Positions 11,852-52,431 are shown, counted from the first letter of the stretch. The stretch is DNA of 64,000 nucleotides from Gammaproteobacteria bacterium (GCA_022823625.1 JAJEHQ010000011.1:132077-196076); one strand, 5' to 3'. Made by a program: numbers and translations. Notes: generated from the letters alone by a model not told the origin.

Positions 11852-11860
11852 GGACTGTTC

Positions 11861-14020: not shown

Positions 14021-14057
14021 TAATCAGCAGTGCGATAAATTTCACTGATCGCCAACA

Positions 14058-21704: not shown

Positions 21705-21708
21705 GTCA

Positions 21709-24272: not shown

Positions 24273-24282
24273 GGTAGAACCA

Positions 24283-31885: not shown

Positions 31886-31985
31886 ATTTGCCAACCGAAA
31901 ATTGGAGGGCAACATGGGAGAACTCATAAATTCAATGATTTGTATAAATTCAACAGGTTGAGAATTGATTCGTTTGTCTGAAGAT

Positions 31986-34378: not shown

Positions 34379-34437
34379 GGAAATACCCTGAATTCTGCTT
34401 GTTGGTCCATACTCCTCAATCCAAATTTGGGAGTGAA

Positions 34438-35007
34438 TCAATAGTAGCCGATCACATCACCCTTGGTGGTCACGCCTAAACCATTGAGCAGACGGTTGAC
34501 GTAGCAGAAGTAACCGACTACCTGGTTTAATTCCAGGATTTCACCGTCATCACATCCGGCCTGAAATAGAGCCTCAATGTCTGATTCAAGCATAGAGTCA
34601 ACCGCGACTGTCAGCTTTTCCACGTAATTTAGCATTGCCAGTTCTTTATCTTGGAAGGCGCAGTTTGGTTGGCGGTTTTTCAAAGCTGAAATTATTTGCT
34701 CGTAGCGTACGTCGTCGTTCAGTAGTTTGCGCAGATTTGAACTGTGATGTGTAACGCTGTAATCACACTTGTTCAGAAGGCTGGTATAGGTTCCAGCGGT
34801 TTCAAGAAACCAGATTGGCAGTGAATTATCATTGCTGTGGAGTACGCTTCGATACAGTGAGACGTGACCATGCATGGTTTTTGGACGTAGACTGTGAATT
34901 CGCATCACGTTGTCCACTGTTCCGTGTGGCGTTCGAGTCGTTTCCAAAGCCTCTTTTGCTTCTCCCGTCGCCTCTTCGTCAGAGAGCATTTTGATCCAGG
35001 CAGTCAT
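34438..35007 (-). CDS. Carboxymuconolactone decarboxylase (AhpD-like) family, peroxidase-related-enzyme subgroup
   Basis: 189 aa. The N-terminus W.KMLSDEEATGEAKE and the core KCDYSVTHH fit a CMD-type CxxC/H motif with the second Cys replaced by Ser. Confidence 0.65.
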   Translation of the reverse strand: MTAWIKMLSDEEATGEAKEALETTRTPHGTVDNVMRIHSLRPKTMHGHVSLYRSVLHSNDNSLPIWFLETAGTYTSLLNKCDYSVTHHSSNLRKLLNDDVRYEQIISALKNRQPNCAFQDKELAMLNYVEKLTVAVDSMLESDIEALFQAGCDDGEILELNQVVGYFCYVNRLLNGLGVTTKGDVIGYY

Positions 35008-36205: not shown

Positions 36206-39106
36206 ATGTCTGATACAGCCACAATAAAGCGTGACTTGTCGAAACGTATCAAATGCGAAGTGCTGACCGCTAATTTTGATCGCGGTCGATACGCGACCGA
36301 TGCATCAAGCTACCAGATGATGCCTCTGGCAGTTGTTCTTGCAGAGCACGAGAACGATGTTGTAGAGACAGTCGGCTATGCGGGACAGCAGGGAATTCCA
36401 CTCTTGCCCCGGGGTGGAGGGACATCGCAGTGCGGCCAGACAGTCAATCATGCAATTGTGCTGGATTACAGCAAATTCCTGAATCAGGTTATTGATCTCG
36501 ACATCGAAAACCGGCGTTGTCGGGTCCAAGGTGGTATCGTGCTAGATGAGTTGAATCGATTTCTCAAGCCCCATGGATTCTGGTTTCCCGTTGATGTCTC
36601 CACTGCGAGTCGAGCAACAATCGGTGGCATGACCGGTAACAATTCCTGCGGGAGCCGGTCCATTCGATATGGCTTGATGCGGGACAATGTCATTGCTGTG
36701 GATGCTTTGCTGCCGAGTGGTGAAACACTTGGCTTTGGTGAGACAGCTGTGAAGTCTGCAAGTATTCATCCTCTATTCAAGCAGTTCATCGATATCGGTG
36801 TTCGAGAACACAAAGAAATTGATTTGCGGTTTCCGAAGCAAATGCGACGGGTCGGTGGTTACAACATTGATGCTCTGGTTCCTCAAAAAGATTCAATCAA
36901 TCTAGCGCACCTGCTAGTTGGATCAGAAGGCACCCTGGCCCTAAGTCGCACCATCGACCTCAAACTATCTCAAATTCCAGACAACAAATTACTCGGCATC
37001 TGTCACTTCCCAACTTTTCATGCAGCAATGGAATCAGCCCAGCATATCGTCAAACTGGGACCCGTTGCTGTTGAACTCATTGACCGTACGATGATTGAAT
37101 TGTCCCGTGAAATTGAGATTTTTCAAGACACTGTCAAAAATATGGTCAATGGTGAACCAGAGGCTTTGCTGTTAGTTGAATTTGCTGAAAGCGATCAGTC
37201 CGAGAACTTTCGACGTTTGAAGGCACTGAGTGAATTGATGGCTGAACTCGGATACCAGTTTACAAATCCTAAACGATTCCGAGGCGGCGTGGTTGATGCG
37301 ATTGACCGAAAGTTTCAGGCTTCGGTGTTCGAAGTACGAAAGGCTGGTCTCAACATCATGATGTCTATGCGAGATGACCGCAAACCGGTTTCTTTCGTGG
37401 AAGACTGCGCAGTCGACCTTGAGGACCTAGCCGAGTATACCGACAGGCTAACAGAAATTTTCCATAAGCATGGCACCCGAGGAACCTGGTACGCGCATGC
37501 TTCTGTGGGTTGTCTACATGTTCGCCCTGTTTTGAACTTGCGCGAGGAACGGGATATCAAGGCTATGCGCGCCATTGCCGAAGAATGCTTTGACATGGTA
37601 CTCCAATACAAGGGATCGCACTCTGGAGAGCATGGAGACGGATTGTGCCGTTCGGAGTTCCACGAGAAGATGTTCGGCAAACGGATGGTTGAGACATTCG
37701 GTGAAATTAAGCGGCTGTGTGATCCGGCTGGAATAATGAATCCAGGGAAAATCATCAACCCGCCGAAGATGGATGATGCTCGACTATTCCGCTTCCCGCC
37801 CGAATACACCGTACCTGAAATCAGTACCGTCTTGGATTGGCGGGGCTGGACCGGTCAGGGCGGCGGCTTTCAAGGCGCCGTTGAAATGTGTAATAACAAT
37901 GGTGCCTGTCGAAAACTTTCTAGGGGTGTGATGTGTCCTTCCTATCGTGCAACCAAGGATGAGCGGCATGTGACTCGGGGTAGAGCGAATGTTCTGCGTC
38001 TCGCTATTTCCGGTCAACTCGGTACGGATGCATTGACCTCTGATGCGATGCGTGACGCGATGAAATATTGTGTCAGTTGCAAAGCCTGCCGACGGGAATG
38101 TCCAACCGGAGTTGACATGGCAAGGATGAAGATTGAAACTACCGCGGCTATATCAAGTGCTCACGGTATTACAACGCACGAGAAACTGATCGGTCATTTG
38201 CCACGTTTCGCGCGGTATGCCAGTCGTTTGTCCTGGATTAGTAGTCTAATCTCCAATTCTTCCGCTGTCCGTTCAGTTTTGGAACCCGTTACGCAATTGA
38301 GTCGTTATCGTCCGTTGCCAAAATGGCATCGAAATCCATTTTTACAGTCTCAAAGCCTAGGACCATCCAATGGCAAGCCGGTGGTCCTGTTTGCTGACAC
38401 TTTCAACAGGTGGTTTGAGCCGGCTAATCTGCGATCTGCGATAAGTGTTTTGGTCGCAGCGGGCTATCGCATACACTTTCCGATTTCGGATGACGGTCGG
38501 CATCCTTTGTGCTGCGGGCGTACCTATCTGACGAATGGTCTGATCGATGAGGCGAAGCTGGAAATTAACCGCTTGCTAACAGCAGTCGAATCCTACTTGA
38601 AACAGGGTATTCCGCTCGTTGGACTGGAGCCGAGTTGTCTGCTTGGTCTGCGAGACGAGATTCCGCTATTGGTCAGTAGCGATGTCTCGGAATTGCTGGC
38701 ACAAAATTCGTTCCTGTTTGAAGAGTTCTTGGAAAAGGAAAACCCCGACCTCAAACTGAATCCTATTGATCGAGTTGCCCTGATTCACGGTCACTGTCAT
38801 CAGAAGTCATTTGATCAGATGAGTGATGTTGAAAGTGTGCTAGCTCGAATTCCCGAATTGAAGTCTAGTGTCATTGATTCCGGTTGCTGCGGTATGGCTG
38901 GTGCATTCGGCTACGGTAGGCATACCTGGCGCATTTCAAACAAGATGGCAGAACTTGATCTGTTACCGGCGATTCGCGAGGCGAAAGAGGACACAATCAT
39001 AGTTGCAGATGGAACTTCCTGCCGCCACCAGATTGAACTGGGTACTGGCAGGCAATCTATACACGTCGCACAGTTGTTGGAATCCGCCTTACAGAGTAAC
39101 GATTGA
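36206..39106 (+). CDS. FAD-linked oxidase fused to a 4Fe-4S / CCG-domain module (YdiJ/GlcD-GlcF-like 2-hydroxyacid dehydrogenase)
   Basis: 966 aa. The FAD-binding PCMH region has LLPRGGGTSQCGQ, the ferredoxin-type cluster motif is CVSCKACRRECP, and the C-terminus carries Cys-rich repeats (CCG...GCCGMAG). Confidence 0.85.
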   Translation: MSDTATIKRDLSKRIKCEVLTANFDRGRYATDASSYQMMPLAVVLAEHENDVVETVGYAGQQGIPLLPRGGGTSQCGQTVNHAIVLDYSKFLNQVIDLDIENRRCRVQGGIVLDELNRFLKPHGFWFPVDVSTASRATIGGMTGNNSCGSRSIRYGLMRDNVIAVDALLPSGETLGFGETAVKSASIHPLFKQFIDIGVREHKEIDLRFPKQMRRVGGYNIDALVPQKDSINLAHLLVGSEGTLALSRTIDLKLSQIPDNKLLGICHFPTFHAAMESAQHIVKLGPVAVELIDRTMIELSREIEIFQDTVKNMVNGEPEALLLVEFAESDQSENFRRLKALSELMAELGYQFTNPKRFRGGVVDAIDRKFQASVFEVRKAGLNIMMSMRDDRKPVSFVEDCAVDLEDLAEYTDRLTEIFHKHGTRGTWYAHASVGCLHVRPVLNLREERDIKAMRAIAEECFDMVLQYKGSHSGEHGDGLCRSEFHEKMFGKRMVETFGEIKRLCDPAGIMNPGKIINPPKMDDARLFRFPPEYTVPEISTVLDWRGWTGQGGGFQGAVEMCNNNGACRKLSRGVMCPSYRATKDERHVTRGRANVLRLAISGQLGTDALTSDAMRDAMKYCVSCKACRRECPTGVDMARMKIETTAAISSAHGITTHEKLIGHLPRFARYASRLSWISSLISNSSAVRSVLEPVTQLSRYRPLPKWHRNPFLQSQSLGPSNGKPVVLFADTFNRWFEPANLRSAISVLVAAGYRIHFPISDDGRHPLCCGRTYLTNGLIDEAKLEINRLLTAVESYLKQGIPLVGLEPSCLLGLRDEIPLLVSSDVSELLAQNSFLFEEFLEKENPDLKLNPIDRVALIHGHCHQKSFDQMSDVESVLARIPELKSSVIDSGCCGMAGAFGYGRHTWRISNKMAELDLLPAIREAKEDTIIVADGTSCRHQIELGTGRQSIHVAQLLESALQSND

Positions 39107-39439: not shown

Positions 39440-40300
39440 TTATTTTCCCTCAAAATTTGGTTTGCGCTTTTCATTGAATGCTTGAACTCCTTCACGCCGG
39501 TCGCGAGTTGGGACCGTTCGGTTGTAGGCTTCAATTTCAAACGCCAGTGCGTCGGACAGGCTCATTTGCACTCCCTTTTGAATAGACTGTTTAGCTTGTC
39601 GAATTGCGATGGGTGCGTTGGCAGAAATTTTTTCTGCTGTTTCAATAGCCGAATTTAAAAGTTGATCAAGTGGTACGATTTTATTGACCAGTCCCCATTT
39701 GAATGCCTCCTGTGCTGAAAATGACCTGCCTGTCAAAATGATCTCCTTGGCGCGACGCTCACCAACGGAGCGCGGTAGTGTTTGAGTTCCGCCGGCACCA
39801 GGAATGATCCCGAGTCCAGTTTCCGGAAGTGCAAAATGAGCGGTTTCTGAAGCATAAAGAAAATCCATCAAACATGCCAGTTCACATCCTCCACCGTAAG
39901 CTGCACCATTGACTGCTCCGATGACGGGAATGGGACAGTTTTTGATTGCTCTCACCATGCGTTCAATTTCCAGATGCTGTCTCGACCAAACTGAATCGTC
40001 CATTCCACGCCTTTCCTTTAAGTCGGCACCCGCACAAAATGCCCGTTTTCCGGCACCAATGACGACAATACATCGGTAGTCAGTCTGATCTAGTGCAACA
40101 CCTTCAAACAACTGATAAATGTCCCGGACCATCTGGGTGTTGAACGCGTTCGAAGCTTCTGGTCGGTTTAAAGTTACGATGAAGATATGGTCGCTGATCT
40201 CATCAATCAGTAACGTATCGTAAATTTCATTGGTTAAAGGTGATCGTGGCATCAGTGATTCACTCTCATCGGCGAGATTTTGGATTTTGCCATATTCCAT
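39440..40300 (-). CDS. Enoyl-CoA hydratase/isomerase (crotonase) family protein
   Basis: FCAGADLKER, AVNGAAYGGGCELA and G.IPGAGGTQ oxyanion-hole motifs. Confidence 0.85.
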   Translation of the reverse strand: MEYGKIQNLADESESLMPRSPLTNEIYDTLLIDEISDHIFIVTLNRPEASNAFNTQMVRDIYQLFEGVALDQTDYRCIVVIGAGKRAFCAGADLKERRGMDDSVWSRQHLEIERMVRAIKNCPIPVIGAVNGAAYGGGCELACLMDFLYASETAHFALPETGLGIIPGAGGTQTLPRSVGERRAKEIILTGRSFSAQEAFKWGLVNKIVPLDQLLNSAIETAEKISANAPIAIRQAKQSIQKGVQMSLSDALAFEIEAYNRTVPTRDRREGVQAFNEKRKPNFEGK

Positions 40301-40752: not shown

Positions 40753-41910
40753 GTGAAGTACCAACTTGACCACCAGGACATACGCGATGGAGTCTGGAAG
40801 CTTTGTCTCGATTTTGGGTCGAACTACTGGCAAAACTGTGACCGGAATCGTTCATACCCTGAAGAATTTGTCAATGCACTGACCCGTTCTGGTTACCTTG
40901 GTGCGCTTATTCCGAAGCAGTACGGTGGCTATGAGCTGCCAATTTCTGCCGCCGCTGCCATTCTGGAAGAAATTCACCGATCAGGTGGGAATGCAGCTGC
41001 GTGCCATGCTCAGATGTACATCATGGGGACGGTACTGCGTCACGGGTCAGAAGAACAGAAGGAAAAATATTTGCCCGGCATTGCAGATGGTTCTATTCGT
41101 CTTCAGGCGTTTGGTGTGACCGAACCCGGTAGCGGGACCGACACATCATCATTGCGCACCACAGCAGTTCGCTCAGGTGACCGCTATATCGTGAATGGTC
41201 AGAAAATCTGGACCTCCCGAGCCGAACACTCTGATCTGATGCTGTTATTGTGTCGTACAACACCAATTAATCAGGTGAAGAAGCGAAGCGACGGATTGTC
41301 GACGCTCCTGGTTGACACTCGGAAAATACCAGAATCACAGTTAATAATTCGTCCGGTTCGCACCATGATGAATCACTCAACGACGGAAGTGTTTTTTGAG
41401 GACATGGAGGTGCCCACTAATGCCTTGATCGGAGAGGAGGGAATGGGATTTCGGTACATTCTCTCTGGTATGAATGCCGAGCGGATATTGATTGCTGCGG
41501 AGTGTATCGGCGATGCGAAATGGTTTGTTGAAAAGGCAGTTGCCTATGCCAAAGAACGCGTGGTGTTCAGTCGTCCGATTGGACAGAACCAGGGAATACA
41601 GTTTCCAGTTGCCAGGGCGTACGCAGGAATGCGGGCTGCTGAGTTGATGCTCAAGGAAGCAGCGAGATTATTCGATGAAGGTGGAAATCCAGGTGAAGAG
41701 GCGAATTTGGCGAAACTGCTGGCTGCTGATGCGTCGTGGGAGGCTGCAGAGGCCTGTCTGCAAACGCATGGAGGATTTGGATTTGCCGAAGAATTTGACG
41801 TAGAAAGAAAGTTTCGAGAAACGCGGCTGTACCAGATCGCACCGATTTCAACCAATCTGATTTTGAGCTATCTCTCAGAACATGTCCTGGAGTTGCCAAG
41901 GTCGTATTAA
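40753..41910 (+). CDS. Acyl-CoA dehydrogenase family protein
   Basis: 385 aa with a GTG start. Motifs FGVTEPGSGTD, IWTSRAEHSD and GGFGFAEEFDVERKFRE are ACAD features. Confidence 0.85.
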   Translation: MKYQLDHQDIRDGVWKLCLDFGSNYWQNCDRNRSYPEEFVNALTRSGYLGALIPKQYGGYELPISAAAAILEEIHRSGGNAAACHAQMYIMGTVLRHGSEEQKEKYLPGIADGSIRLQAFGVTEPGSGTDTSSLRTTAVRSGDRYIVNGQKIWTSRAEHSDLMLLLCRTTPINQVKKRSDGLSTLLVDTRKIPESQLIIRPVRTMMNHSTTEVFFEDMEVPTNALIGEEGMGFRYILSGMNAERILIAAECIGDAKWFVEKAVAYAKERVVFSRPIGQNQGIQFPVARAYAGMRAAELMLKEAARLFDEGGNPGEEANLAKLLAADASWEAAEACLQTHGGFGFAEEFDVERKFRETRLYQIAPISTNLILSYLSEHVLELPRSY

Positions 41911-42075: not shown

Positions 42076-43173
42076 ATGACCCCTGAACTGCGTCCCGGCT
42101 TAGAAAACATCAAGCCGCACATGGTTGCGGCGGACGATAAAGCACTGGCTAGAACTCGCATCAACATAGCCTCCAATGAAAGTGCATTTGGCCCGTGTGA
42201 TCTGGCGATAGCTGCTGCCACCGAAGCGATTCAAAGAATGGAACGATATGCTGATGGTGCGGAAGCCGTATTGACCGAACGCGTCGCTCATCATCATGCA
42301 CTCAGTCCTGACGGTGTTGTTTGTGGGAATGGTTCCGATGATTTGTTGGCGAGACTCGCTCGTGCATTTTTAAGACCGGGCGACGAATTGATCTGCAGTA
42401 TCAACGGATATCAGAAAATTCCAAATTATGCTTACGCTAATGATGCCGTTCCTGTTCGCGCGAACGATAGTGACTTTACGACGAATGTCGATGAAGTTTT
42501 GAGTTGTTTGTCGTCCAAAACTCGAATCGTCATGATTGCAAATCCTGACAATCCCTCTGGCACTTGGGTGAGTGGGTCGGAAGTCAGGCGACTGCATCAG
42601 AATCTGCCGTCCAGCGTGCTCCTGATTCTGGATTCTGCCTATCTCGAATATGTTGATGACGATGAATTTGGAGACCCGGCCTCTCTTGTTGAAGAAAATG
42701 AAAATGTTGTAATGACAAGAACATTTTCAAAGATTTATGGCCTTGCTGGACTGCGCTTGGGATGGATGTACGCACCGAAACGAATCACTGATGCAATTCG
42801 AAAAATTGGAATGACTTTTCCGATTTCGAATGTCGCGTTTGAATGCGCCAAAGCTGCATTGGCGGACCGTGAATACACGAAGAGTGTATTTGAACGCAAC
42901 TTGAACGGGCGACAGAAGTTCGCTGCCACTCTTGAGCGTTTGGGTGCCCGAGTACTTCCTTCCCAAACCAATTTTTTGTTGGCAACATTTCCACCAGATC
43001 TAGTAGCGGCATCCGATCTACACCGTGAGTTGTTAGCACAGGGAATTTTCACCCGTCGCCTGGCATCTGACGCGTTCTCTGACTGCATTCGATTTACGAT
43101 TGGAACACCTTCTCAGATGAAAGAAGTTTCGCACGTTCTTCAGGACCTGATCAAAGGGCCCGCCACCGCTTAA
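42076..43173 (+). CDS. PLP-dependent aminotransferase, class I/II, HisC-like
   Basis: IANPDNPSGTW and TFSKIYGLAGLRLGW (PLP-lysine motif), 365 aa. Confidence 0.8.
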   Translation: MTPELRPGLENIKPHMVAADDKALARTRINIASNESAFGPCDLAIAAATEAIQRMERYADGAEAVLTERVAHHHALSPDGVVCGNGSDDLLARLARAFLRPGDELICSINGYQKIPNYAYANDAVPVRANDSDFTTNVDEVLSCLSSKTRIVMIANPDNPSGTWVSGSEVRRLHQNLPSSVLLILDSAYLEYVDDDEFGDPASLVEENENVVMTRTFSKIYGLAGLRLGWMYAPKRITDAIRKIGMTFPISNVAFECAKAALADREYTKSVFERNLNGRQKFAATLERLGARVLPSQTNFLLATFPPDLVAASDLHRELLAQGIFTRRLASDAFSDCIRFTIGTPSQMKEVSHVLQDLIKGPATA

Positions 43174-43187
43174 ATAACGGGGACAAT

Positions 43188-43694
43188 ATGACGCTGCCAA
43201 TCAAAGGTGCATCGATTATCAAGGCATTCGAGGATGCCGGAATTCAGTCTGTTGTCGCGCTGCCGGATATCGTTACCTGCGATACAGTGCTCTGGCCACT
43301 GTCATCGAACCCCAACTTCATGTTTATTCCGGTCTGCAAGGAAGATGAGGGAGTTTCGATTTGTGCGAGCCTTTCTTACTGTGGTCAGCGCGCACTGCTT
43401 TTAATTCAGCATACCGGCTTTCTGGATTCGATCAATGCAATACGCGCGATTGCGGTGGAATACCAGCTGCCGGTTGTCATGGTTGTCGGACTGCAGGGTT
43501 CTGACCCCGATACGCATCCGAACCAGTCAAAAAGCATTGGAATTCGAGCGCTTGGGCCGATTTGCGATGCCTTGGAACTTCGTCATGCTTTTGTCAAGGA
43601 TGAGGAGAGTGCCATCTCGATTGTTGAGATGATTGAAGCCGCATACGAGAACTCCTCACCGTGCGCAATATTTGTACCTAATCCGCCAGTCTGA
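43188..43694 (+). CDS. TPP-dependent 2-oxoacid decarboxylase, alpha (PYR-domain) subunit; sulfopyruvate/phosphonopyruvate decarboxylase family (ComD-like)
   Basis: 168 aa. VALPDIV...PVCKEDEGVSICASLSYCGQRALLLIQHTGF has the catalytic-Glu PYR-domain pattern, and it is a separate polypeptide as in ComD. Confidence 0.7.
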   Translation: MTLPIKGASIIKAFEDAGIQSVVALPDIVTCDTVLWPLSSNPNFMFIPVCKEDEGVSICASLSYCGQRALLLIQHTGFLDSINAIRAIAVEYQLPVVMVVGLQGSDPDTHPNQSKSIGIRALGPICDALELRHAFVKDEESAISIVEMIEAAYENSSPCAIFVPNPPV

Positions 43695-43700
43695 TCCAAC

Positions 43701-44288
43701 ATGATGAAACGAGATCAAGCGCTACAGGCACTAGCCCGACACTATCAGGACGGCATTGCAGTTGCTGTCTATCAGACGGCGTTTGACTGGATGCACATCA
43801 GACCGCATGACCTGAACTATTTTTGCACTGGTGCGATGGGTCAGGCATCTTCGCACGGATTGGGGTTGGCGTTGGGCGCCCCGGATGAAAAAGTAATCGT
43901 ATTGGACGGAGACGGCAGTCTGCTGATGAATCTCGGGTCGCTGGTTACAGTTGCCAATATGGCACCGAGAAACTTTTTTCATTTTGTCAGCCAGAACAAC
44001 ATGTATGAAGTGAACGGAAAAATTCCGATTCCCGGAGCGGCATCCATCAATTTTGATCATATGGCGATTGCGGCGGGATACAGACACGCTTTTTCCTTCG
44101 ATGACATCGGTCAATTCAATTCAGAGATCAAGGGAATTTTGGAATTGGAAGGTCCGGTGCTTGTTTGCATGCATATCGAACCAGGAGATTTCTATCCACT
44201 CGATTACGTTACACTCCACAGTGAAGAGACCCGGGTAAAATTTCGAAACGCTTTGAAATCTCGGCTACAATCACCACTTCAGGAATGA
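43701..44288 (+). CDS. TPP-dependent 2-oxoacid decarboxylase, beta (PP-domain) subunit (ComE-like)
   Basis: GAMGQASSHGLGLALGAPDEKVIVLDGDGSLLMNLGSLVTV...SQNN contains the GDG-x(25)-NN TPP/Mg motif. 195 aa. Confidence 0.75.
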   Translation: MMKRDQALQALARHYQDGIAVAVYQTAFDWMHIRPHDLNYFCTGAMGQASSHGLGLALGAPDEKVIVLDGDGSLLMNLGSLVTVANMAPRNFFHFVSQNNMYEVNGKIPIPGAASINFDHMAIAAGYRHAFSFDDIGQFNSEIKGILELEGPVLVCMHIEPGDFYPLDYVTLHSEETRVKFRNALKSRLQSPLQE

Positions 44289-44381: not shown

Positions 44382-45227
44382 ATGGCAAATCAACATACAC
44401 AATCGGCGGCGGGGTATAGAGTCCGACCACCTACACCGAGTATTTTGTTTACTCGGAAATCTCCCCTTATTGATATTGGGCAACTGCTATTGCTCGGAGG
44501 ATTGACTACATGGGTCATCTATAAGGGTGCGAAAGCCATGCAATACAACTGGCAGTGGTATCGGGTCGATCAATTCATTTACCGGATTATTGACGGTGAA
44601 TTGATTTGGGGGGCGTTAATGAAGGGACTGATGGTCACCTTTGAGATTACTGCAGTCAGCATGGTGCTGTCGGTGGTGATCGGGTTAGTTACCGCTCTGC
44701 TTCGGATGTCGAATTCATTTTCAGGCAAACTGATTGCGAATATCTATCTTGAATCAATTCGTAATACTCCGCTGCTTGTTCAACTATTCCTGTTCTATTT
44801 CATTATTGCACCAATTGTTGGAATTGACCGGTTCTGGACCGGGGTGCTGTGTCTGAGTTTTTTTGAAGGCTCTTTTGCAGCAGAAATCATTCGCGCGGGT
44901 ATTCAATCAGTACCTCGCGGTCAGACTGAAGCGGCCAAGGCGATCGGCTTTAGTCGCATCAATATGTATCGGGATGTGATTCTTCCACAAGCGATACCAA
45001 TAATCCTTCCGCCAATGACTGGGTTGATCATCAATCTGATCAAGCACTCAGCAATCGTCAGCGTGATTGCAGTTGCAGATTTGACGACAGAAGGATTAAA
45101 CATTATTTCGGAGACCTTTATGGCATTCGAAATCTGGTTTACAGTTGCTGGGATTTATCTTGTCGTGACTGTATCACTCTCATTATTCGTTTCATGGATG
45201 GAGTCTAAAGCCATGCGTGGACGGTAA
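44382..45227 (+). CDS. Polar amino acid ABC transporter permease (HisM/HisQ-like)
   Basis: EAA-type loop GQTEAAKAIGFSRINMYRDVILPQA. Confidence 0.85.
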   Translation: MANQHTQSAAGYRVRPPTPSILFTRKSPLIDIGQLLLLGGLTTWVIYKGAKAMQYNWQWYRVDQFIYRIIDGELIWGALMKGLMVTFEITAVSMVLSVVIGLVTALLRMSNSFSGKLIANIYLESIRNTPLLVQLFLFYFIIAPIVGIDRFWTGVLCLSFFEGSFAAEIIRAGIQSVPRGQTEAAKAIGFSRINMYRDVILPQAIPIILPPMTGLIINLIKHSAIVSVIAVADLTTEGLNIISETFMAFEIWFTVAGIYLVVTVSLSLFVSWMESKAMRGR

Positions 45228-45257
45228 TGTCATTTATTTTTTAGGAGAAAGTTAAAT

Positions 45258-46082
45258 ATGAAACTAAGAAACCTATTCGTTACGATCTTTACAGCTTTTG
45301 CGCTTGCATTTTCAGCTATGGCCGGAGCGGCATCGCAGGAGTTGGCTGCTGAAAGTGTCTTGGAAGAGGTCAAAAAGCGCGGTTCTCTTCGAGTTGGCAT
45401 GTCCACCTTTGTACCATGGGCGATGCGAGACAAGAAAGGCGACTTGATTGGTTTTGAGATCGATGTTGCAACAAAGGTTGCTGAAGACATGGGTGTGGAA
45501 GTCGAATTTGTTCCCACTGCTTGGTCTGGAATCATTCCCGCTTTGATTGCTCGAAAGTTTGACGTAATTATTGGTGGTATGTCGATTACTCCAGGAAGAA
45601 ATCTGACTGTAAATTTCACAGCACCATATGCGCATTCTGGACAACAGATGGTCGCAAATATCGAGTTGGCAGAAGGATTTGCAGTCGAAGACTTTAACGC
45701 CTCAGACGTAACAATTGCATGTCGTCGCGGCGCGACACCCTGTAATGCAGCGCAAGAACTCTTTCCGAAGGCAAGCCTTGCTCGCTTCGATGATGATGCT
45801 CAGGCATTTCAGGAAGTTGTCAATGGTAATGCACATGCAATGATTTCATCGGCACCAAAGCCTCGCTTTTGGATGGGCAACTACCCAGGCAAGCTTTTCA
45901 TGCCAACTGATGAAAACCTGACGACGGGAGATGAAGCCTTTGCACTCCGTAAGGGAGACCCGGATGCGCTCAATTTCTTCAGCAACTGGATTGTCGTAAA
46001 CACGAGCAACGGTTGGCTGAAAGAACGCCATGATTTCTGGTTTAAGGCACAGACTTGGAAAGACCAGGTTGAAGAACAGTAA
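45258..46082 (+). CDS. Polar amino acid/opine-type periplasmic binding protein (family 3)
   Basis: Signal peptide MKLRNLFVTIFTAFALAFSAMAGA, plus GFEIDVA and FDVIIGGMSITPGR motifs. Confidence 0.85.
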   Translation: MKLRNLFVTIFTAFALAFSAMAGAASQELAAESVLEEVKKRGSLRVGMSTFVPWAMRDKKGDLIGFEIDVATKVAEDMGVEVEFVPTAWSGIIPALIARKFDVIIGGMSITPGRNLTVNFTAPYAHSGQQMVANIELAEGFAVEDFNASDVTIACRRGATPCNAAQELFPKASLARFDDDAQAFQEVVNGNAHAMISSAPKPRFWMGNYPGKLFMPTDENLTTGDEAFALRKGDPDALNFFSNWIVVNTSNGWLKERHDFWFKAQTWKDQVEEQ

Positions 46083-46100
46083 GGTTGTTTGATTTTTGTG

Positions 46101-46125
46101 TTTCCCCGGTAACTCGCCGGGGAAA
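46101..46125 (+). terminator. Intra-operon hairpin after the binding-protein gene (possible attenuator or partial terminator)
   Basis: TTTCCCCGG-taactcg-CCGGGGAAA, a perfect 9-bp GC-rich stem 19 nt after the stop. The downstream T-tract is weak (TACATAATTTCC). Confidence 0.45.
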
Positions 46126-46152
46126 TACATAATTTCCAATTGATTGTTTGAC

Positions 46153-47064
46153 ATGAATGAAGTTCGACTACGGCCTCCGGCTGAAAAAACCAGGCGAGTC
46201 ACCCTGCTCGATATCGCAATAATCAGCGTTGTCGTTGCAGTGTTGGTATACACCTATTACCGGGTGGAGCACGTCCTGGTCTATACCTGGGATTGGCCGC
46301 TGGTTTTCGAGTACGTCATTCGAGTTGACGAAATAACTGGTGAAATATTCCCCAATTTGTTTCTGAAGGGTGTCGCGATGACGCTGCGTCTCGCATTTTG
46401 GGGGACCATCATTGCCGCCGTAATCGGAATCGTCATGGGCCTGTGTCGGGTCAGTAACAACCTGTTCCTGAAACTTGGCAGCCGACTGTACGTGGAACTG
46501 ATCCGCAACATTCCGCCGGTTGTTTTCATTTTCGTCTTTTACTTCTTTATCAGCAGTCAAATTATTCCTCTGTTGGGACTGGATAGAATTGAGCAAACGT
46601 TTTCGCCGGGAACTCTTGCGGTAATGGAGGTGTTGTTCGGCCCCACTGATTTGTTCAACAACTTTCTTGCTGGGCTCATCTGTCTGGCGGTTTTTGAAGG
46701 TGCATACATCACTGAAATTGTGCGGGCAGGAATTCAATCCATTGACAAGGGCCAGTGGGAAGCCGCTCGTGCAATTGGACTTTCGCGCTTTCGTGTTCTA
46801 AGCGACATCATCATGCCACAGGCGTTGCGGACGATCCTGCCGCCATTGGCTGGACAATTTATTACGCTGGTAAAGGATTCGAGTATCGTGTCGTTGATCT
46901 CAGTTCAGGAATTGACTTTTCTTACTCAGGATGTTTCCAATACCACGACCCACTTTTTCGAAGCCTGGATGATTACCGCTGCCTTGTATTTCATGATGTG
47001 TTTTCCGTTAGCGGTATTGTTCCAGAGATTTGAGCGATTCGGCTTGGGTATTCAAAGAAACTAG
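46153..47064 (+). CDS. Polar amino acid ABC transporter permease with N-terminal extension
   Basis: EAA loop [28 protein letters not shown] at 46153, three codons inside the TTG-started track ORF. Confidence 0.85.
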
Positions 47065-47074
47065 GAGTGTTGAT

Positions 47075-47851
47075 ATGTCAGACCATACAGAAAATAAAAA
47101 TTCCGACCCGTCTCGCAAGGAACTTTTGAAGTTCGTTAACGTAGGCAAATGGTACGGTGATTTTTGTGCGCTATGGGACATCAACCTGACTGTTCATGCA
47201 GGTGAACGAGTGGTCGTTTGTGGCCCTTCCGGTTCTGGTAAATCAACGATGATACGGTGTGTCAACCAGCTTGAAACCTTTGAAGCTGGTGAAATTCTGA
47301 TTGACGGAGTTGTCGTCCAAACTGACCCGAAGTCTTTGCAGACCATTCGCCGTAAAGTCGGAATGGTGTTTCAGAACTTCAATCTATTTCCGCACATCAC
47401 AGTAATTCAGAACCTCATGTTGGGGCCAATCCGTAATTTAAAAGTATCAAAAAAAGAAGCGGAAGAAAGAGCGATGCGCTATTTGGAAAAGGTTCGCATT
47501 GCTGAGCAGGCTAAGAAATACCCCAGTCAACTGTCTGGTGGTCAGCAGCAGCGCGTTGCGATTGCACGGTCGTTATGTATGCACCCGGAGGTGATGCTGT
47601 TCGATGAACCGACATCTGCCCTTGACCCTGAAATGATTTCTGGCGTATTGGACATTATGGTGGAGTTGGCGGAAGGCGGAATGACGATGATGGTGGTCAC
47701 GCACGAGATGGGATTTGCCAAGCAGGTTGCAGATACGATGGTCTTCATGGACCATGGTGAAATTGTTGAAGTAGCGCCTCCAAATGAATTTTTCACCAAC
47801 CCCAAGAGCGAGCGAACCGAGCTTTTTCTCAGCCAGATATTGCAGCACTGA
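47075..47851 (+). CDS. Polar amino acid ABC transporter ATP-binding protein (HisP/GlnQ-like)
   Basis: [37 protein letters not shown] at 47063-47067 precedes the ATG at 47075. Confidence 0.9.
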
Positions 47852-47856
47852 CTGCT

Positions 47857-49119
47857 GTGCGCTCAGATCAACGTTATTCAATATTCACTCTGATTGGTGG
47901 CGCAGTTCGCGCTCACAGGCATTGGAAACCAGCTTGGCGAAATCCGCAGCCTAAGACGCACTACGATGTAGTCATCATCGGTGGCGGTGGGCATGGTCTC
48001 GCAACCGCCTATTATCTGGCGAAAAACCACGGTATCCACAATGTCGCTGTGGTCGAAAGAAACTGGATTGGTGGCGGTAACAGTGGTCGTAATACTGCAG
48101 TTGTTCGATCCAATTACCTTCGTGATATCAGCATTCAATTCTTTGACAAGTCGCTGCAGCTCTATGAAGGACTGAGTCGGGAACTCAACTACAACATCAT
48201 GCTCAGCCAGCGTAGTGAAGTCGATGTGCTGCTGACTACCGTGAGTATGCGCAACATGAGAAGACGCGCACTCAACATGAATCGATTGGGTATCGAGTTT
48301 CAGATGCTGACGCCCGATCAGGTGAGGGAGAGAATTCCGATTCTGGCTCCTATGGAAAACTGCCGCTTGCCCATTCTAGGTGGTTCAATTCAGGAACGTG
48401 CCGGTATTGCCAGGCATGATGCAATTGTATGGGGCTATGCAAGAGGTGCTGACTCTTACGGTGTCGACATTATTCAGAATGCCGAAGTTACGGCCATCCG
48501 CCGTGGCAATGATGGCGCAGTCGCTGAAATTGAGACAAGTCGAGGGCGAATAAAGGCCAACAAAATAGCGATTGCAACTGGTAATGAGAACGCTGCAGTG
48601 GCGAGTCTGGTCGATTTGAGACTCCCGCTTCGCTGCTATAACCTACAGGCATTCGTATCTGAACCGATCAAACCGGTTCTTGATGTTGTCGTCAATTGCC
48701 CTGATTTAGGGGTATATCTCAGCCATTCCGATAAAGGAGAGTTGGTGATTGGTGGAGCGACGGATGCGCAGCAGATTTCATTTCGAAAGGGTGGTAAGTT
48801 TCCAATGCTGGAAGACACCATTTCGGGATTACTTGAACTTTTTCCTTCTTTCCGACGGCTCAAGTTGATGCGGCAATGGGGCGGCGCCCTGGAATTTGCT
48901 CAGGATGGCAGTCCGATAGTTTCCTTAACTGATGTTAAAGGATTCTACGTCAGTGCCGGTTGGTGGGGTGGATTCAAGGCCATTCCTGCTGGTGGTATGA
49001 CATTTGCGCACTTAATCGCCCGCGATGAGCCACACCAGCTGGCGGCGGGATACGGGATGGAAAGATTCTCCACATTGAATTATCTGCTTGAAGGTGGGAC
49101 GACGGTTCCGACCGATTGA
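47857..49119 (+). CDS. soxB: Heterotetrameric sarcosine oxidase family, beta subunit
   Basis: RYSIF...HRHWKPAWRNPQPKTHYDVVIIGGGGHGLATAYYLAK is the canonical SoxB N-terminus. The GTG start lies 5 nt after the ATPase stop. Confidence 0.85.
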   Translation: MRSDQRYSIFTLIGGAVRAHRHWKPAWRNPQPKTHYDVVIIGGGGHGLATAYYLAKNHGIHNVAVVERNWIGGGNSGRNTAVVRSNYLRDISIQFFDKSLQLYEGLSRELNYNIMLSQRSEVDVLLTTVSMRNMRRRALNMNRLGIEFQMLTPDQVRERIPILAPMENCRLPILGGSIQERAGIARHDAIVWGYARGADSYGVDIIQNAEVTAIRRGNDGAVAEIETSRGRIKANKIAIATGNENAAVASLVDLRLPLRCYNLQAFVSEPIKPVLDVVVNCPDLGVYLSHSDKGELVIGGATDAQQISFRKGGKFPMLEDTISGLLELFPSFRRLKLMRQWGGALEFAQDGSPIVSLTDVKGFYVSAGWWGGFKAIPAGGMTFAHLIARDEPHQLAAGYGMERFSTLNYLLEGGTTVPTD

Positions 49120-49210
49120 GTGTTTTATGCTGTACTAACCGAATAGTGTTCACAAAATTGGATTCTGTCCGATCAAAATTATCCGATTCGCTGATAAGGA
49201 TAGCCATTCG

Positions 49211-49465
49211 ATGTTATTAATCCATTGTCCATGGTGTGGAGTACGCGCTGAGTCGGAGTTCAGGTGTACGGGTCAAGTGAAGCCGCCGCGCAGTGAGTTT
49301 GTACATAAAAGCGATGAAGCCTGGCTTGAATACCTCTATCAGGCGGACAATCGCCGCGGAATTTTAGAAGAATACTGGTGTCATGAAAAAGGATGTGGCC
49401 AGTGGTTTAAGCTTCGGCGCGATACCACAACGCATGAGATCATGGATGGGGATACGGACTCATGA
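49211..49465 (+). CDS. soxD: Sarcosine oxidase family, delta subunit
   Basis: MLLIHCPWCGVRAESEF... has Zn-ribbon-type Cys/His. 84 aa. Its stop overlaps the soxA start. Confidence 0.85.
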   Translation: MLLIHCPWCGVRAESEFRCTGQVKPPRSEFVHKSDEAWLEYLYQADNRRGILEEYWCHEKGCGQWFKLRRDTTTHEIMDGDTDS

Positions 49466-52431
49466 GTCGAGCAAATTCAAAAAGGCTCCATTTTGGCGGT
49501 TACATTGATCGAACGCAAAGCCTGAAATTTAAGTTCAATGGCAGAGACTATGTCGGATTTCAGGGCGACACACTCGCTTCGGCACTCATGGCAAACGGAG
49601 TTAACGTCCTTTCGAGAAGCTTCAAATATCACCGCCCGCGTGGAGTCCAAAATCGCGGGTATGCCGACGTTACCTCACTTGTACAGATTGCAGGGAAAAA
49701 TGAATCTCCCAATGTTCTTGCCAGCGTTCAGCCACTTTACGAAGGCCTCGAAGCGTTCAGTGTGAACTGCTGGCCGAGCGTCAGTTTCGACATTGGTTCG
49801 ATTTTCGGAGCGTTTTCCCCGATTCTTCCAGCGGGTTTTTACTACAAGACATTCATGTGGCCCAACTGGCATTTATTTGAGCCGCTGATCCGGCGTGCTG
49901 CCGGTTTCGGGAAAGCACCCAGTCAGGCGCCTGCTGGTCAATTCCTGAACCGGTTTGATTATTGCGATATTTTGGTGATCGGTGCTGGTCCTGCCGGACT
50001 TCTGGCGGCTTTGACCGCGGCGAAGTCCGGGGCACGGACTGTGATTATTGATGAAATGACTCAGCCCGGTGGCAGTTTGCTATACAGCAAGACAGAACTT
50101 GAGGGGCAGCTTGCAATCGATTGGATAGCCCGTACAGTTGATGAACTGAAAAGCATGGATCACGCAACCTGCCTTTGGAATTCAACGGCCTGGGGCTACC
50201 AGGAAGGGAACATGGTGTGCGTTTCGGAACGTGACCCGAAACCCGCAGAGTTGATTGGTCGAAATTGGAAAATTTGGGCGAAACAGGTCATACTGGCAAC
50301 GGGCGCAATCGAACGGCCAATCGTCTTTGAAAACAATGACGTGCCTGGTGTGATGCTTTGTTCTGCAGTGATGGAAGCGATTCAGACGTACGGAGTGGTT
50401 CCTGGGAAAAAGGCGGTACTGTTCACCAACAATAGCAGTGCTTACGACATTCTGCCGTATCTGCAAGTAGCAGGTATTGAACTGGCCGCCATTGTGGATA
50501 CGCGCAGTGATGTTGAATTGGATACTGTTATTGGGACGGATGACTCAAATGTCGAGGTTCTACAGGGAGCTTCTATCCAACTGGTGATACGCGCAGGTAG
50601 ACGAGTCAGGGGTGTTGTAGTCCATGCTCAGGACAGTTCCGGCAAAGAGAAAGTGGGCAAAATCGAATGTGACTTGGTCTGCGTTTCGGGTGGCTGGAAT
50701 CCCAGTGTTCATCTCTTCTCTCAATCGCGCGGGACTCTTCGCTATGATGACAATATTGCATCATTTGTTCCAGATCAGGCGATTCAGGCGACACTCTGCG
50801 CGGGTGCCATAACTGGCGAAATGTCGTTAGCAGGCAGTCTGAAATCTGCGGTGCAAATCGGGTCGAAGGCATTGTCAAGAATTGGGATTGAGGCGGCACC
50901 GATTTCGATTCCAGAGGTGACAAACGGCGATCACACTAACTATCAAGTTGATGCGTTCTGGAGTTCAACTGCTGGTCATAAGCGCGTCAAGGCGTTTGTC
51001 GATTTTGCAGGAGATGTGACCGTTTTCGATTTGAAACTCGCCATTCAGGAGGGATTCGATGAGATTGAGCACCTGAAACGCTACACAACCACAGGCATGG
51101 GACTCGATCAGGGAAAAACAGCCAATGTCAATGCGATCGGGATTATTGCCTTTCATCTGGATTGCCATCCATCAGAAGTTGGCACGACAACTTTTCGACC
51201 GCCCTACACACCAGTTGAATTTGGCTCGATTGCTGGAAGTCAAGCGGGTGATGTAGTATTGCCTTACCGCCATACACCGATGACGCATTGGCACAAAGAG
51301 TACGGTGCGGTGATGTACGAAGCAGGAGCCAGGTGGCGGCGTCCTGGTTATTACCTGAAGGAAGGTGAGTCCATGAATGAAGCGATCAATCGCGAGTGTT
51401 ATGCGGTGAGAAATCATGTTGGAATTTACGATGGCTCACCACTCGGCAAATTTATCATTCGGGGCAAGGATACTGAGAAACTACTCAATCTCATCTATAC
51501 AAACAGTTTTAACGGATTAAAACCGGGTCAGGGCAAATACGGGTTAATGCTCAATGAAGAGGGGCTGATTTTTGATGATGGTGTCACCTTTCGAATTGAT
51601 GATGATCAATACCTCTTGTCTTGTTCTACTGGCGGTGCACCAGCGGTAGAGCGTAAGGTTGATAAGCTGATTAATGTCGAGTGCCCTGAATTGAAAGTGA
51701 TCATCACTCCGGTAACCTCTCAGTGGGCGAACGCGACGGTCTGCGGACCTTTGGCAAGACAGATGCTTCAATCCACAGAATCAGACATCGATTGGTCACG
51801 AGAAGCCCTACCATTCATGCATGTCGTGGAAGGCATCATCGCCGGAATGCCAGTCAGGGTGTTTCGGGTCAGTTTCACTGGGGAGTTGAGTTTTGAGATC
51901 AACACACCTTCGAGGTACGGGCTCAAGCTTTGGAGGTATCTAATCGAAGTCGGGCAGAATTGGGATATCTGCCCAGTTGGGTCGGAAGCCAATCACGTCC
52001 TTCGAGTCGAAAAAGGATTTTTGTCTCTGGCTCATGAGGTTGACGGGACAGTCGATCCAATTGACTTGGGACACGGTTGGATCGTGAGTCGGAAAAAGAA
52101 AGACTTCATTGGCAAACGCTCAATGGAGATTCGTCGACAGAACCAGCCAGTTCGGCAGGAACTCGTTGGTTTACTGCCAAAAGACTCGAAGCAACTGATT
52201 TCGGAAGGAGCACCCATAGCACCAGCGAACAAACAGGAGTTGTCAGATGGGTTTGTTTCTGCTTGTGTATGGAGTGGGGTCTTGGAACGCACAATTGCGC
52301 TTGGAGTACTTACGGACGGGCGTTCCAGATTTGGCGAGACGGTACTTGCTTGGGAACAAGGTGAACCGCTGCCTCTAGAGGTCACACGCCCGATATTCTA
52401 TGATGCTGAGGGGATAAGGCTGAGGATGTGA
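49462..52431 (+). CDS. soxA: Sarcosine oxidase family, alpha subunit
   Basis: 989 aa. It has a dinucleotide-binding ILVIGAGPAGLLAALTAAKSG and a C-terminal GcvT-like folate-binding domain (HVGIYDGSPLGKF...). Confidence 0.85.
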   Translation: MSRANSKRLHFGGYIDRTQSLKFKFNGRDYVGFQGDTLASALMANGVNVLSRSFKYHRPRGVQNRGYADVTSLVQIAGKNESPNVLASVQPLYEGLEAFSVNCWPSVSFDIGSIFGAFSPILPAGFYYKTFMWPNWHLFEPLIRRAAGFGKAPSQAPAGQFLNRFDYCDILVIGAGPAGLLAALTAAKSGARTVIIDEMTQPGGSLLYSKTELEGQLAIDWIARTVDELKSMDHATCLWNSTAWGYQEGNMVCVSERDPKPAELIGRNWKIWAKQVILATGAIERPIVFENNDVPGVMLCSAVMEAIQTYGVVPGKKAVLFTNNSSAYDILPYLQVAGIELAAIVDTRSDVELDTVIGTDDSNVEVLQGASIQLVIRAGRRVRGVVVHAQDSSGKEKVGKIECDLVCVSGGWNPSVHLFSQSRGTLRYDDNIASFVPDQAIQATLCAGAITGEMSLAGSLKSAVQIGSKALSRIGIEAAPISIPEVTNGDHTNYQVDAFWSSTAGHKRVKAFVDFAGDVTVFDLKLAIQEGFDEIEHLKRYTTTGMGLDQGKTANVNAIGIIAFHLDCHPSEVGTTTFRPPYTPVEFGSIAGSQAGDVVLPYRHTPMTHWHKEYGAVMYEAGARWRRPGYYLKEGESMNEAINRECYAVRNHVGIYDGSPLGKFIIRGKDTEKLLNLIYTNSFNGLKPGQGKYGLMLNEEGLIFDDGVTFRIDDDQYLLSCSTGGAPAVERKVDKLINVECPELKVIITPVTSQWANATVCGPLARQMLQSTESDIDWSREALPFMHVVEGIIAGMPVRVFRVSFTGELSFEINTPSRYGLKLWRYLIEVGQNWDICPVGSEANHVLRVEKGFLSLAHEVDGTVDPIDLGHGWIVSRKKKDFIGKRSMEIRRQNQPVRQELVGLLPKDSKQLISEGAPIAPANKQELSDGFVSACVWSGVLERTIALGVLTDGRSRFGETVLAWEQGEPLPLEVTRPIFYDAEGIRLRM

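Follow-up and report, generated by a model that had tools for sequence, protein, structure and literature searches.

Decarboxylases that depend on thiamine pyrophosphate (TPP) and divide their PYR and PP domains over two polypeptides are known from ComDE, which takes part in coenzyme M synthesis and bacterial sulfolactate degradation, from RhiEF, the split phosphonopyruvate decarboxylase (Ppd) of Bacillus subtilis (PDB 9IZ3/9IZ4), and from AzcBC of Streptomyces (PDB 9U8Q), which its PDB title describes as the TPP-dependent alpha-imino-acid decarboxylase AzcB/AzcC. The split architecture already spans at least three different substrates and, because AzcBC has it, is not restricted to sulfo- and phosphonopyruvate. 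The 64,000-nucleotide stretch of DNA analysed here (GCA_022823625.1, JAJEHQ010000011.1:132077-196076; hereafter the window) stems from a marine gammaproteobacterium of the order Arenicellales and encodes an enzyme of this kind directly downstream of a HisC-type aminotransferase (three genes at 42076-44288, hereafter the trio). Judged by sequence, the two subunits represent a distinct, large, widespread and unnamed sister family of ComDE, Ppd/RhiEF and AzcBC and are orthologues of neither ComDE nor Ppd. The trio is best read as the probable downstream end of a conserved import-and-demethylation island, and we put at roughly 55% the probability that the island is an Ehrlich-type catabolic module in which import, N-demethylation, transamination, 2-oxoacid decarboxylation and aldehyde oxidation follow one another.

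The first gene of the trio (42076-43173, + strand, 365 aa) encodes a class I/II pyridoxal phosphate (PLP) aminotransferase (Pfam Aminotran_1_2, 4.6e-47). The TFSK motif with the PLP-binding Lys and the two Arg that anchor the substrate line up with those of 4wbt and 4r2n, which places the enzyme in the HisC family. It is a specialised paralogue and not a HisC equivalog, as its score against the NCBIfam hisC model (TIGR01141, 253.5 bits) lies just below the cut-off of 276.55 and its neighbours in every lineage are TPP genes and the importer rather than his genes. The PLP Lys and both Arg are kept across the HisC family and do not discriminate between substrates. The alpha (43188-43694, +, 168 aa; TPP_enzyme_N, PYR domain) and beta subunits (43701-44288, +, 195 aa; Pfam TPP_enzyme_C, 2.6e-13, PP domain) follow, with intergenic gaps of 14 and 6 nt by calling of open reading frames (ORFs). 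These coordinates agree exactly with the three tightly spaced same-strand genes, and the domains with the separately encoded PYR and PP halves, described in an earlier reading of the same DNA (hereafter the original prediction).

The features of a split TPP decarboxylase are all found in the two subunits. Residues 44-59 of the beta subunit read GAMGQASSHGLGLALG, and its GDG (70-72) and NN (99-100) are separated by 26 residues; the motif pair noted in the original prediction is thus present, at a spacing of 26 and not 25. In the alpha subunit, the cofactor-activating Glu lies in a CKEDE motif shared without variation by 22 members of the family. The pattern GDG-X(24-27)-N(N) in the PP domain together with the activating Glu in the PYR domain is that of the TPP superfamily, and the separate PYR and PP chains of ~170-195 aa, encoded by adjacent genes and lacking a TH3 middle domain, are those of its split decarboxylases. 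The AlphaFold model of the beta subunit (pLDDT 89) matches RhiF with template-modelling (TM) scores of 0.77-0.86 and AzcC (9u8q_G) with a TM score of 0.80.

ComD, ComE and Ppd were the top-scoring NCBIfam models for the two subunits, and the ComD and ComE models were matched over their full length, but no curated cut-off was reached. The alpha subunit scored 79.4 bits against ComD (TIGR03845, cut-off 147.95), the beta subunit 102.1 bits against ComE (TIGR03846, cut-off 221.5), and Ppd (TIGR03297, cut-off 312.5) gave 109.5 bits for beta and 35.2 for alpha. Among solved proteins, the closest to beta by sequence were 9iz3_B (RhiF; 75 bits, E 5e-20) and 9u8q_G (40 bits, E 3e-9), and alpha matched RhiE (9iz3_A) at 29 bits (E 1e-5); AzcBC is by these scores a distant match. 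The clade signatures were examined in an alignment of 14 RhiF-like split Ppd beta subunits and 18 members of the beta family of the window, the two groups being ~28-29% identical. All 14 RhiF-like sequences carry GSMG(M/I)A(A/G)P and DNGxHE(S/K)TGGQ, in place of which all 18 have GAMG(Q/L)(A/G)(S/V/A)S(H/N) and N(N/G)xYE(V/A)NG. The form typical of the family is GAMGQASSH and YE(V/A)NG, accompanied by a conserved C-terminal IHS.E.R..FR.AL. While the RhiF-like signature itself comes from the alignment, a role of HE(S/K)TGGQ and GSMG(M/I)A(A/G)P in phosphonate binding is our assumption. The sub-cut-off scores and the replaced signatures are the grounds for placing the subunits in a sister family rather than in ComDE or Ppd. 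Of the assignment made in the original prediction, the split architecture stands, with RhiEF and AzcBC as the nearest solved proteins, and the membership in ComDE/Ppd falls; the motifs cited in its favour are either generic to TPP enzymes or specific to the new family. That family is sizeable: relatives of the beta subunit form 4,528 clusters (90% identity) at E 1e-10 or better. Members are named only 'thiamine pyrophosphate-dependent enzyme' by NCBI, and in JGI annotation the labels of the same proteins vary between sulfopyruvate and phosphonopyruvate decarboxylase.

Directly downstream of the trio lies a four-gene polar-amino-acid importer of the ATP-binding cassette (ABC) type (44382-47851, +), as had been predicted. 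It comprises a first permease (44382-45227; BPD_transp_1, EhuD/EhuC-like at 147 bits, below cut-off), a periplasmic substrate-binding protein with a remodelled pocket (45258-46082; SBP_bac_3), a second permease (46144-47064; BPD_transp_1) and an ATPase (47030-47851; GlnQ/EhuA-like, 309 and 290 bits). As listed, the ATPase ORF has a TTG start and overlaps the permease gene by 35 nt, and the model alignment begins at residue 33; an in-frame ATG near 47075 is probably the true start.

The best PDB match of the binding protein is 9e2b (316 bits), followed by AncCDT-1 (202 bits) and the lysine binder Ws0279 (168 bits); cyclohexadienyl dehydratase arose from the lineage to which the protein belongs (AncCDT-1, Ws0279). 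No publication was found for PDB codes 9E2B and 9U8Q. AncCDT-1 is a reconstructed cationic-amino-acid binder, and its preprint names Asp170 as the residue to shield for alpha-keto-acid binding (bioRxiv 10.1101/157495). Our pocket numbering was checked against the D19, A20, D21, W60, G99, Q100, Q128, S133 and D170 given there. In this numbering, the protein of the window retains R85, has S in place of D170, has lost D19 and D21, and carries Q128 to R, L129 to R and L198 to E substitutions. Eleven trio-linked orthologues from different taxa all keep R85 and both Arg; Asp170 occurs in 0/11 and E198 in 9/11. R85 is the Arg for the alpha-carboxylate, and we take Asp170 to be the holder of the alpha-ammonium group, the latter being our own reading of the preprint combined with general knowledge of amino-acid-binding proteins. 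The substitutions would then suit a ligand that combines a carboxylate with a distal anion and with an amine other than a free alpha-NH3+. Two extensive ligand screens have left SAR11_1068, a related protein of SAR11, an orphan, and the gene neighbours of Vibrio homologues of the binding protein were uninformative.

Only 5 nt past the ATPase gene begins a complete soxBDAG-like set (47857-52952, +), which the original prediction had missed. It encodes a SoxB-like FAD subunit of a heterotetrameric N-methyl amino acid oxidase/dehydrogenase (47857-49119; TIGR01373, 531.7 bits, cut-off 529.45), a SoxD-like subunit (49211-49465; Pfam SoxD, 4.3e-28, below cut-off), a SoxA-like subunit with a folate-binding GcvT domain (49462-52431; TIGR01372, 1123.9 bits, cut-off 1164; GcvT models at residues 603-982) and a SoxG-like subunit (52428-52952; TIGR01375, 54.9 bits, below cut-off). 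The order B-D-A-G and the GcvT domain in the A subunit are those of the heterotetrameric sarcosine oxidase/N-methylglutamate (NMG) dehydrogenase family. Substrates of Sox-like complexes have the form CH3NHCH(R)COOH, and R may be acidic, as with homarine-derived NMG (PMC13236597); for this reason a ligand whose alpha-amine is not free would fit a link to SoxBDAG. The presence of soxBDAG in the operon and a pocket unlike that for a standard amino acid shift the candidate substrate towards an N-methylated or otherwise N-substituted acidic amino acid.

The window was annotated for ORFs of at least 150 aa, seven of which gave no family match; a sulfite exporter was thus not specifically excluded. 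None of the annotated ORFs encodes phosphoenolpyruvate (PEP) mutase, Xsc, Pta, PhnX, PhnA or PalA, which upholds the earlier statement as to PEP mutase, Xsc and PhnX/PalA, and comABC, slcD, xsc and pta were likewise not found among them. PEP mutase and com genes were also lacking from ten Pfam-annotated related loci (L017-L019, L101-L104, L108-L110; L numbers denote single loci) and from the PGAP-annotated Ruegeria region (L100). A constant association of homologous clusters with PEP mutase, which the original prediction had named as the sign of biosynthesis, was therefore not seen in any annotated related locus, and no phosphotransacetylase was seen in any locus.

The conservation of the module was examined by comparing ~110 related loci from representative genomes, metagenome contigs, contigs with specific homologues, and plasmids. 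A scan of representative genomes with one query protein matched only Arenicellales-like genomes, and the wider sampling is of metagenome contigs and plasmids; the window itself is 99% identical at the protein level to a contig of an Arenicellales metagenome-assembled genome (MAG). Among the 25 loci in which beta identity reaches 59% or more, drawn from several orders, 24 have the HisC-type gene directly upstream of the alpha and beta genes; so do three further loci (L108-L110) and several with 45-55% beta identity. Within the Alpha- and Gammaproteobacteria, the trio keeps this order in Arenicellales, a Rariloculaceae MAG, Acidiferrobacterales, Kiloniellales, Geminicoccaceae and Ruegeria conchae. 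In relatives at most 57% identical, a different gene takes the place of the HisC-type gene just upstream of alpha; it encodes another class-I aminotransferase in L032, a D-amino-acid-dehydrogenase-like flavoenzyme in L027 and a choline-dehydrogenase-like GMC oxidoreductase in L036, L044 and L053. Aminotransferases and D-amino-acid-dehydrogenase-like flavoenzymes are textbook producers of 2-oxoacids.

Two genetic neighbourhoods can be distinguished. Context A (Arenicellales, Acidiferrobacterales, Kiloniellales, Geminicoccaceae and a plasmid of Ruegeria conchae M340) combines the trio with the same binding-protein orthologue (52-100% identical across loci) and importer, SoxBDAG, a LysR regulator, a DoeB-like deacylase and an aldehyde dehydrogenase (ALDH). 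Further partners are a Rieske oxygenase with two 207-aa proteins of no known family, a DUF1116/AllG protein and an amidase. Trio, importer and SoxBDAG form one same-strand array with small gaps in the window, L019 and L110. Context B (the Rariloculaceae MAG and relatives) is a co-directional array of two M14 peptidases, a SoxC-type sulfite dehydrogenase, cytochrome c, a methyltransferase and an amidohydrolase, which continues with the aminotransferase, alpha, beta, an ALDH and a 2-oxoglutarate (2OG) oxygenase; a TonB receptor and an NhaC-type transporter replace the ABC system. The SoxC-type enzyme (493 bits, cut-off 420) and cytochrome c are co-directional with the trio in L015, L103 and L104, SoxBDAG lies near the context B trio in two loci (L017, L104), and L109 is a mixture of both contexts. 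An ALDH gene is adjacent to or directly downstream of the trio in seven loci (L015, L017, L103, L104, L020, L100, L108). These ALDHs score best against the BADH and aminobutyraldehyde dehydrogenase models (435-532 bits), with HpaE and StyD nearly equal; their likeness to BADH was dropped as evidence for a cationic substrate, as unrelated ALDH models score nearly the same. The adjacent ALDHs and the alternative deaminating or oxidising enzymes upstream fit the catabolic sequence of import, deamination and decarboxylation first proposed for the locus.

Several recurrent neighbours were recorded in addition. In other taxa, homologues of the DoeB-like and CMD-family proteins of the window are again encoded close to the trio or to its importer. 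In Ruegeria conchae, an acyl-CoA dehydrogenase (ACAD), an ADP-forming CoA ligase and a CaiD-like hydratase lie beside the trio, analogous to the ACAD and hydratase of the window, and MttB-family and DMGDH-like genes flank it; in Paracoccus seriniphilus, purU adjoins the sox genes. In strain M340 of Ruegeria conchae, the trio corresponds to K3740_RS22560-22570, and the importer and sox genes lie at K3740_RS22620-22685. One or two proteins of ~207 aa with no Pfam or NCBIfam match (L100, 6869-8127; L019, 2604-3227; L102, 5453-6746; L108, 6641-7908) adjoin the Rieske oxygenase, DUF1116/AllG protein and amidase near the trio in several taxa, and together with these may constitute an uncharacterised multi-component enzyme. 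The LysR gene of the importer/Sox cluster has as its neighbour a gene for a hypothetical protein of ~360 aa with no family match, both in two cultured strains (L105, Paracoccus seriniphilus p449297; L107, Ruegeria conchae) and in several metagenome loci.

The combined observations suggest a model of the pathway. The ABC importer would bring in a carboxylate whose amine is N-substituted and whose distal group is anionic; where needed, it would be released from an acyl or peptide form by the DoeB-like deacylases, amidases or peptidases of other taxa. The folate-dependent enzyme of the SoxBDAG/NMG dehydrogenase type would then strip the N-methyl group, passing it to folate and leaving a primary amino acid, while the Rieske oxygenases encoded in other taxa may remove or oxidise further groups. 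The HisC-family aminotransferase is predicted to convert the primary amino acid into a 2-oxoacid, and the heteromeric PYR and PP enzyme to decarboxylate this to an aldehyde. Oxidation of the aldehyde by an ALDH of the kind encoded beside the trio in other taxa would be followed by CoA-dependent steps, with an Fe-alcohol dehydrogenase (56866-58179) and the ACAD/hydratase pair as candidates for onward steps in the window. Gene content, synteny, family placement, cofactor motifs, fold and pocket substitutions are established, and we infer the order of the steps, the N-methyl group and the anionic side chain of the substrate.

As to the substrate, an N-methylated sulfonated amino acid of the cysteate or homocysteate type ranks first, other acidic N-methyl amino acids (2-aminoadipate or aspartate type) second, and other compounds third. 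A sulfonate is weakly favoured because of the kinship with ComDE, the anion-friendly pocket and the sulfite dehydrogenase found in one lineage; other acidic side chains (2-aminoadipate, aspartate and homoserine-derived types) are possible, and a phosphonate finds no support. Taken furthest, the data would describe a marine pathway not reported so far, for an N-methylated anionic and most plausibly sulfonated amino acid, possibly taken up in acylated or peptide-bound form, in which the new split TPP clade decarboxylates a sulfo-2-oxoacid outside the known ComDE routes or itself releases sulfite. We regard this version as tentative and rather doubtful.

Several points weigh against the demethylation and decarboxylation model. 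The view of the pocket is built on homology to AncCDT-1 and not on a structure of the binding protein itself. A scan for consensus promoters and terminators returned counts at or below those of shuffled background, so the operon boundaries are drawn from spacing and synteny only. A tblastn search with a trio-linked ALDH of another locus found no ALDH homologue in the window. Sulfite dehydrogenase is linked to the trio only in three loci that are closely related and probably of one lineage, and it is absent from the window. A plasmid of Paracoccus seriniphilus carries the importer, Sox, Rieske, CMD and deacylase genes without the trio, which means either that the link between demethylation and the trio is not obligatory, the trio being a separable downstream add-on, or that the trio lies elsewhere in that genome. 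Finally, the HisC family also handles amines that lack an alpha-carboxylate (histidinol phosphate), and GMC oxidoreductases usually yield aldehydes rather than 2-oxoacids; the TPP enzyme could accordingly act on an aldehyde instead of a 2-oxoacid.

This last consideration leads to an amine-to-aldehyde-to-TPP-lyase route like that of Tpa/TauXY/IseJ plus Xsc. Here the HisC-type enzyme would transaminate a beta-anionic amine and the split TPP enzyme would desulfonate sulfoacetaldehyde, the starting compound being, for instance, taurine that the Sox complex frees from N-methyltaurine or that a deacylase frees from N-acyl taurines. The natural substrate of HisC is indeed an amine that has its anionic group in the beta position and lacks an alpha-carboxylate, and the aminotransferase, DadA-like flavoenzyme and GMC oxidoreductase found upstream of alpha mirror the sulfoacetaldehyde producers taurine aminotransferase, TauY and IseJ. 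The sulfite dehydrogenase in the trio operon of one lineage would fit, as would a ComDE-like site, which by inference binds the same carbon skeleton as that of sulfoacetaldehyde. The route is nevertheless quite unlikely, and entirely inferential. To our knowledge, no split TPP enzyme desulfonates sulfoacetaldehyde; an ALDH next to the trio would compete for the aldehyde, the binding protein retains its alpha-carboxylate Arg85, and no phosphotransacetylase was seen in any locus. A genuine sulfopyruvate or phosphonopyruvate decarboxylase, forming sulfoacetaldehyde or phosphonoacetaldehyde from imported L-cysteate or phosphonoalanine, as first proposed for this locus, also draws on the sulfite dehydrogenase. 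It would further account for the rank of the ComD, ComE and Ppd models, for RhiEF as the closest solved structure, for a pocket suited to an anionic side chain, and for distant relatives that lie beside SsuA-family binding proteins (weak scores of 45-57 bits). We consider it unlikely, as all three equivalog cut-offs are missed two- to three-fold (79/148, 102/221 and 109/312), the HE(S/K)TGGQ and GSMG(M/I)A(A/G)P of the 14 RhiF-like sequences are replaced, and Xsc, Pta, PhnX, PhnA and PalA are lacking from the window and PEP mutase from both the window and the annotated related loci. The binding protein moreover has no Asp for the free alpha-ammonium group that both cysteate and phosphonoalanine carry, and such an enzyme would leave the co-operonic SoxBDAG without a role.

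The ancestry of the binding protein among Lys/Arg binders (AncCDT-1, 202 bits; Ws0279, 168 bits) could instead point to a cationic substrate, that is, a methylated lysine, ornithine or arginine derivative that is transaminated, decarboxylated as a 2-oxoacid or cyclic alpha-imino acid in the manner of AruH/AruI or AzcBC, and oxidised by a BADH-like enzyme. The same split fold in the alpha-imino-acid decarboxylase 9u8q, the BADH/aminobutyraldehyde-type ALDHs next to the trio (435-532 bits), the M14 carboxypeptidases and ArcD-like transporter of some loci, and the CaiD-like hydratase, ADP-forming CoA ligase and ACAD of Ruegeria are all compatible with it. The pocket, however, having lost D19/D21 and gained two Arg, has the wrong charge for a cationic side chain, the BADH likeness is non-specific in that HpaE and StyD score nearly as high, and beta is far nearer RhiF (75 bits) than AzcC (40 bits), all of which makes a cationic substrate quite improbable. 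A biosynthetic direction, with decarboxylation of a 2-oxoacid and amination of the resulting aldehyde as in the synthesis of 2-aminoethylphosphonate (AEP) or coenzyme M, would match the fact that ComDE and Ppd are mostly known from biosynthesis (PMC12141560). It is highly improbable, given that the window, the ten Pfam-annotated loci and the PGAP-annotated Ruegeria region are free of PEP mutase and com genes, and that the neighbours (importers, demethylases, hydrolases and a LysR regulator) form a catabolic pattern. The catabolic N-demethylation and decarboxylation module thus remains our preferred reading.

Beyond soxG, the array may extend over two more genes. A HAD-IA phosphatase-like protein (53007-53687, +; PGP/PpaX-like, 77 bits) follows soxG in Arenicellales only (L001-L010). 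It was rejected as a PhnX-type phosphonatase, since its motif I, FDFDGVLVDS, is of the DxDG phosphatase type and not of the DWAGT type of PhnX, and no PhnX model was matched. Six nt further on lies a gene for a PLP enzyme of Cys/Met metabolism of the cystathionine gamma-synthase/lyase family (53694-54827, +; PRK07811, 361 bits, cut-off 513), possibly the last of the array. Between it and the Fe-alcohol dehydrogenase gene, a protein of 594 aa (54947-56731, +) has an N-terminal S-adenosylmethionine-dependent methyltransferase domain and a weak HNH_4 match in its C-terminal half.

Upstream of the trio, the ACAD gene (40753-41910, +; AcrC acryloyl-CoA reductase 230 bits, glutaryl-CoA dehydrogenase 196 bits, both below cut-off) is syntenic in L001-L011, all Arenicellales. 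It was rejected as a 3-sulfinopropanoyl-CoA desulfinase because it has the IVD-type catalytic Glu, in NAER. In a second ACAD-fold protein (30671-31885, +), the 3-sulfinopropanoyl-CoA desulfinase equivalog scores 635.6 bits (cut-off 600) and the catalytic Glu is absent from both usual positions. This protein would provide a putative 3-mercaptopropionate/3-sulfinopropionate (organosulfur) step ~10 kb from the trio, to which a link is unproven. An enoyl-CoA hydratase (crotonase; 39440-40300, -; PRK07657, 292 bits, cut-off 363) is syntenic in most Arenicellales loci, and further upstream lie a YdiJ-like FAD/Fe-S dehydrogenase (36206-39106), a 2OG-Fe(II) oxygenase (35016-35945, -; DIOX_N and 2OG-FeII_Oxy), a peroxidase-related CMD-family protein (34438-35007, -; peroxid_rel, 87.9 bits, cut-off 81.8) and a DoeB-like AstE/AspA deacylase (33320-34441, -; DoeB model, 243 bits, cut-off 402).

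The remainder of the window holds three further groups of genes. At 58356-63341 lies a second methylated-amine module, composed of a DAO-family oxidoreductase (58356-59501, -), a FadH/OYE-type Fe-S flavoenzyme (59502-61544, -) that resembles the DgcA/amine-dehydrogenase type, and an MttB-family protein (trimethylamine methyltransferase-like; 61743-63341, +). A purine catabolism block (17924-27622 and 31965-33290) includes xdhA, xdhB and xdhC, all above cut-offs, a BMP-family (nucleoside/B6-type) ABC transporter and guanine deaminase. The stretches 1420-3738, 8272-9801 and 9851-15134 encode a molybdenum hydroxylase large subunit (glyceraldehyde dehydrogenase/CODH-like, below cut-offs), a malonyl-CoA synthase-family ligase above the subfamily cut-off and a PotABCD-like polyamine/AEP-type ABC transporter.

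The chemistry of an aminotransferase followed by a TPP decarboxylase is already known. Nothing was found in the literature on this gene combination or cluster, nor a published description of this clade of enzymes, of its constant pairing with a HisC paralogue, of the remodelled binding protein or of the link to a Sox-type demethylase. Recognition of a separate clade with its own partners keeps marine genomes, those of the Arenicellales included, from being wrongly credited with coenzyme M, sulfolactate or phosphonate metabolism. The island is a concrete orphan pathway for a methylated compound of the dissolved organic nitrogen, which may also carry sulfur, and identification of its substrate is feasible with Ruegeria conchae M340 as a cultured carrier and the crystal structure of a close binding-protein homologue (9E2B). 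If the sulfonated N-methyl reading is true, one-carbon release to folate and the release of sulfite would be joined in one operon.

Among the known systems, RhiEF is alike in its separate PYR and PP chains without a middle domain, the GDG...NN pattern and the activating Glu. It differs from the window family, at the ~28-29% identity given above, in that the latter has YE(V/A)NG, GAMGQASSH and the extra C-terminal IHS.E.R..FR.AL, and the trio, with no PEP mutase nearby, sits in a catabolic rather than a biosynthetic setting. ComDE shares the split into alpha and beta, and both its models are matched over their full length, but the scores of the window are about half the curated cut-offs and comABC, slcD and xsc were not found there. 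AzcBC has the same split fold (TM 0.80), with just 40 bits and 25% identity to the beta subunit of the window, and is a natural-product enzyme. In the AruH-AruI-KauB pathway of Pseudomonas aeruginosa, an aminotransferase, a TPP-dependent 2-oxoacid decarboxylase and an ALDH shorten an amino acid by one carbon. This is the same logic of steps as proposed for the trio; AruI, however, is a full-length, single-chain, acetolactate-synthase-like enzyme, and the aminotransferase subfamily, the charge of the substrate and the neighbours are unlike those of the trio. The catabolism of homarine and glycine betaine likewise employs a four-subunit Sox-like complex with a folate domain to demethylate an N-methyl amino acid, which is imported or arises as a marine methylated compound is broken down (PMC13236597). 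The homABCDER genes have no counterpart here, and genes for an aminotransferase, a TPP enzyme, a Rieske protein or an amidase are lacking from the hom operon (PMC13236597). The product of the homarine route enters central metabolism as glutamate, whereas the product of demethylation in the window would be passed to a dedicated pair of aminotransferase and decarboxylase.

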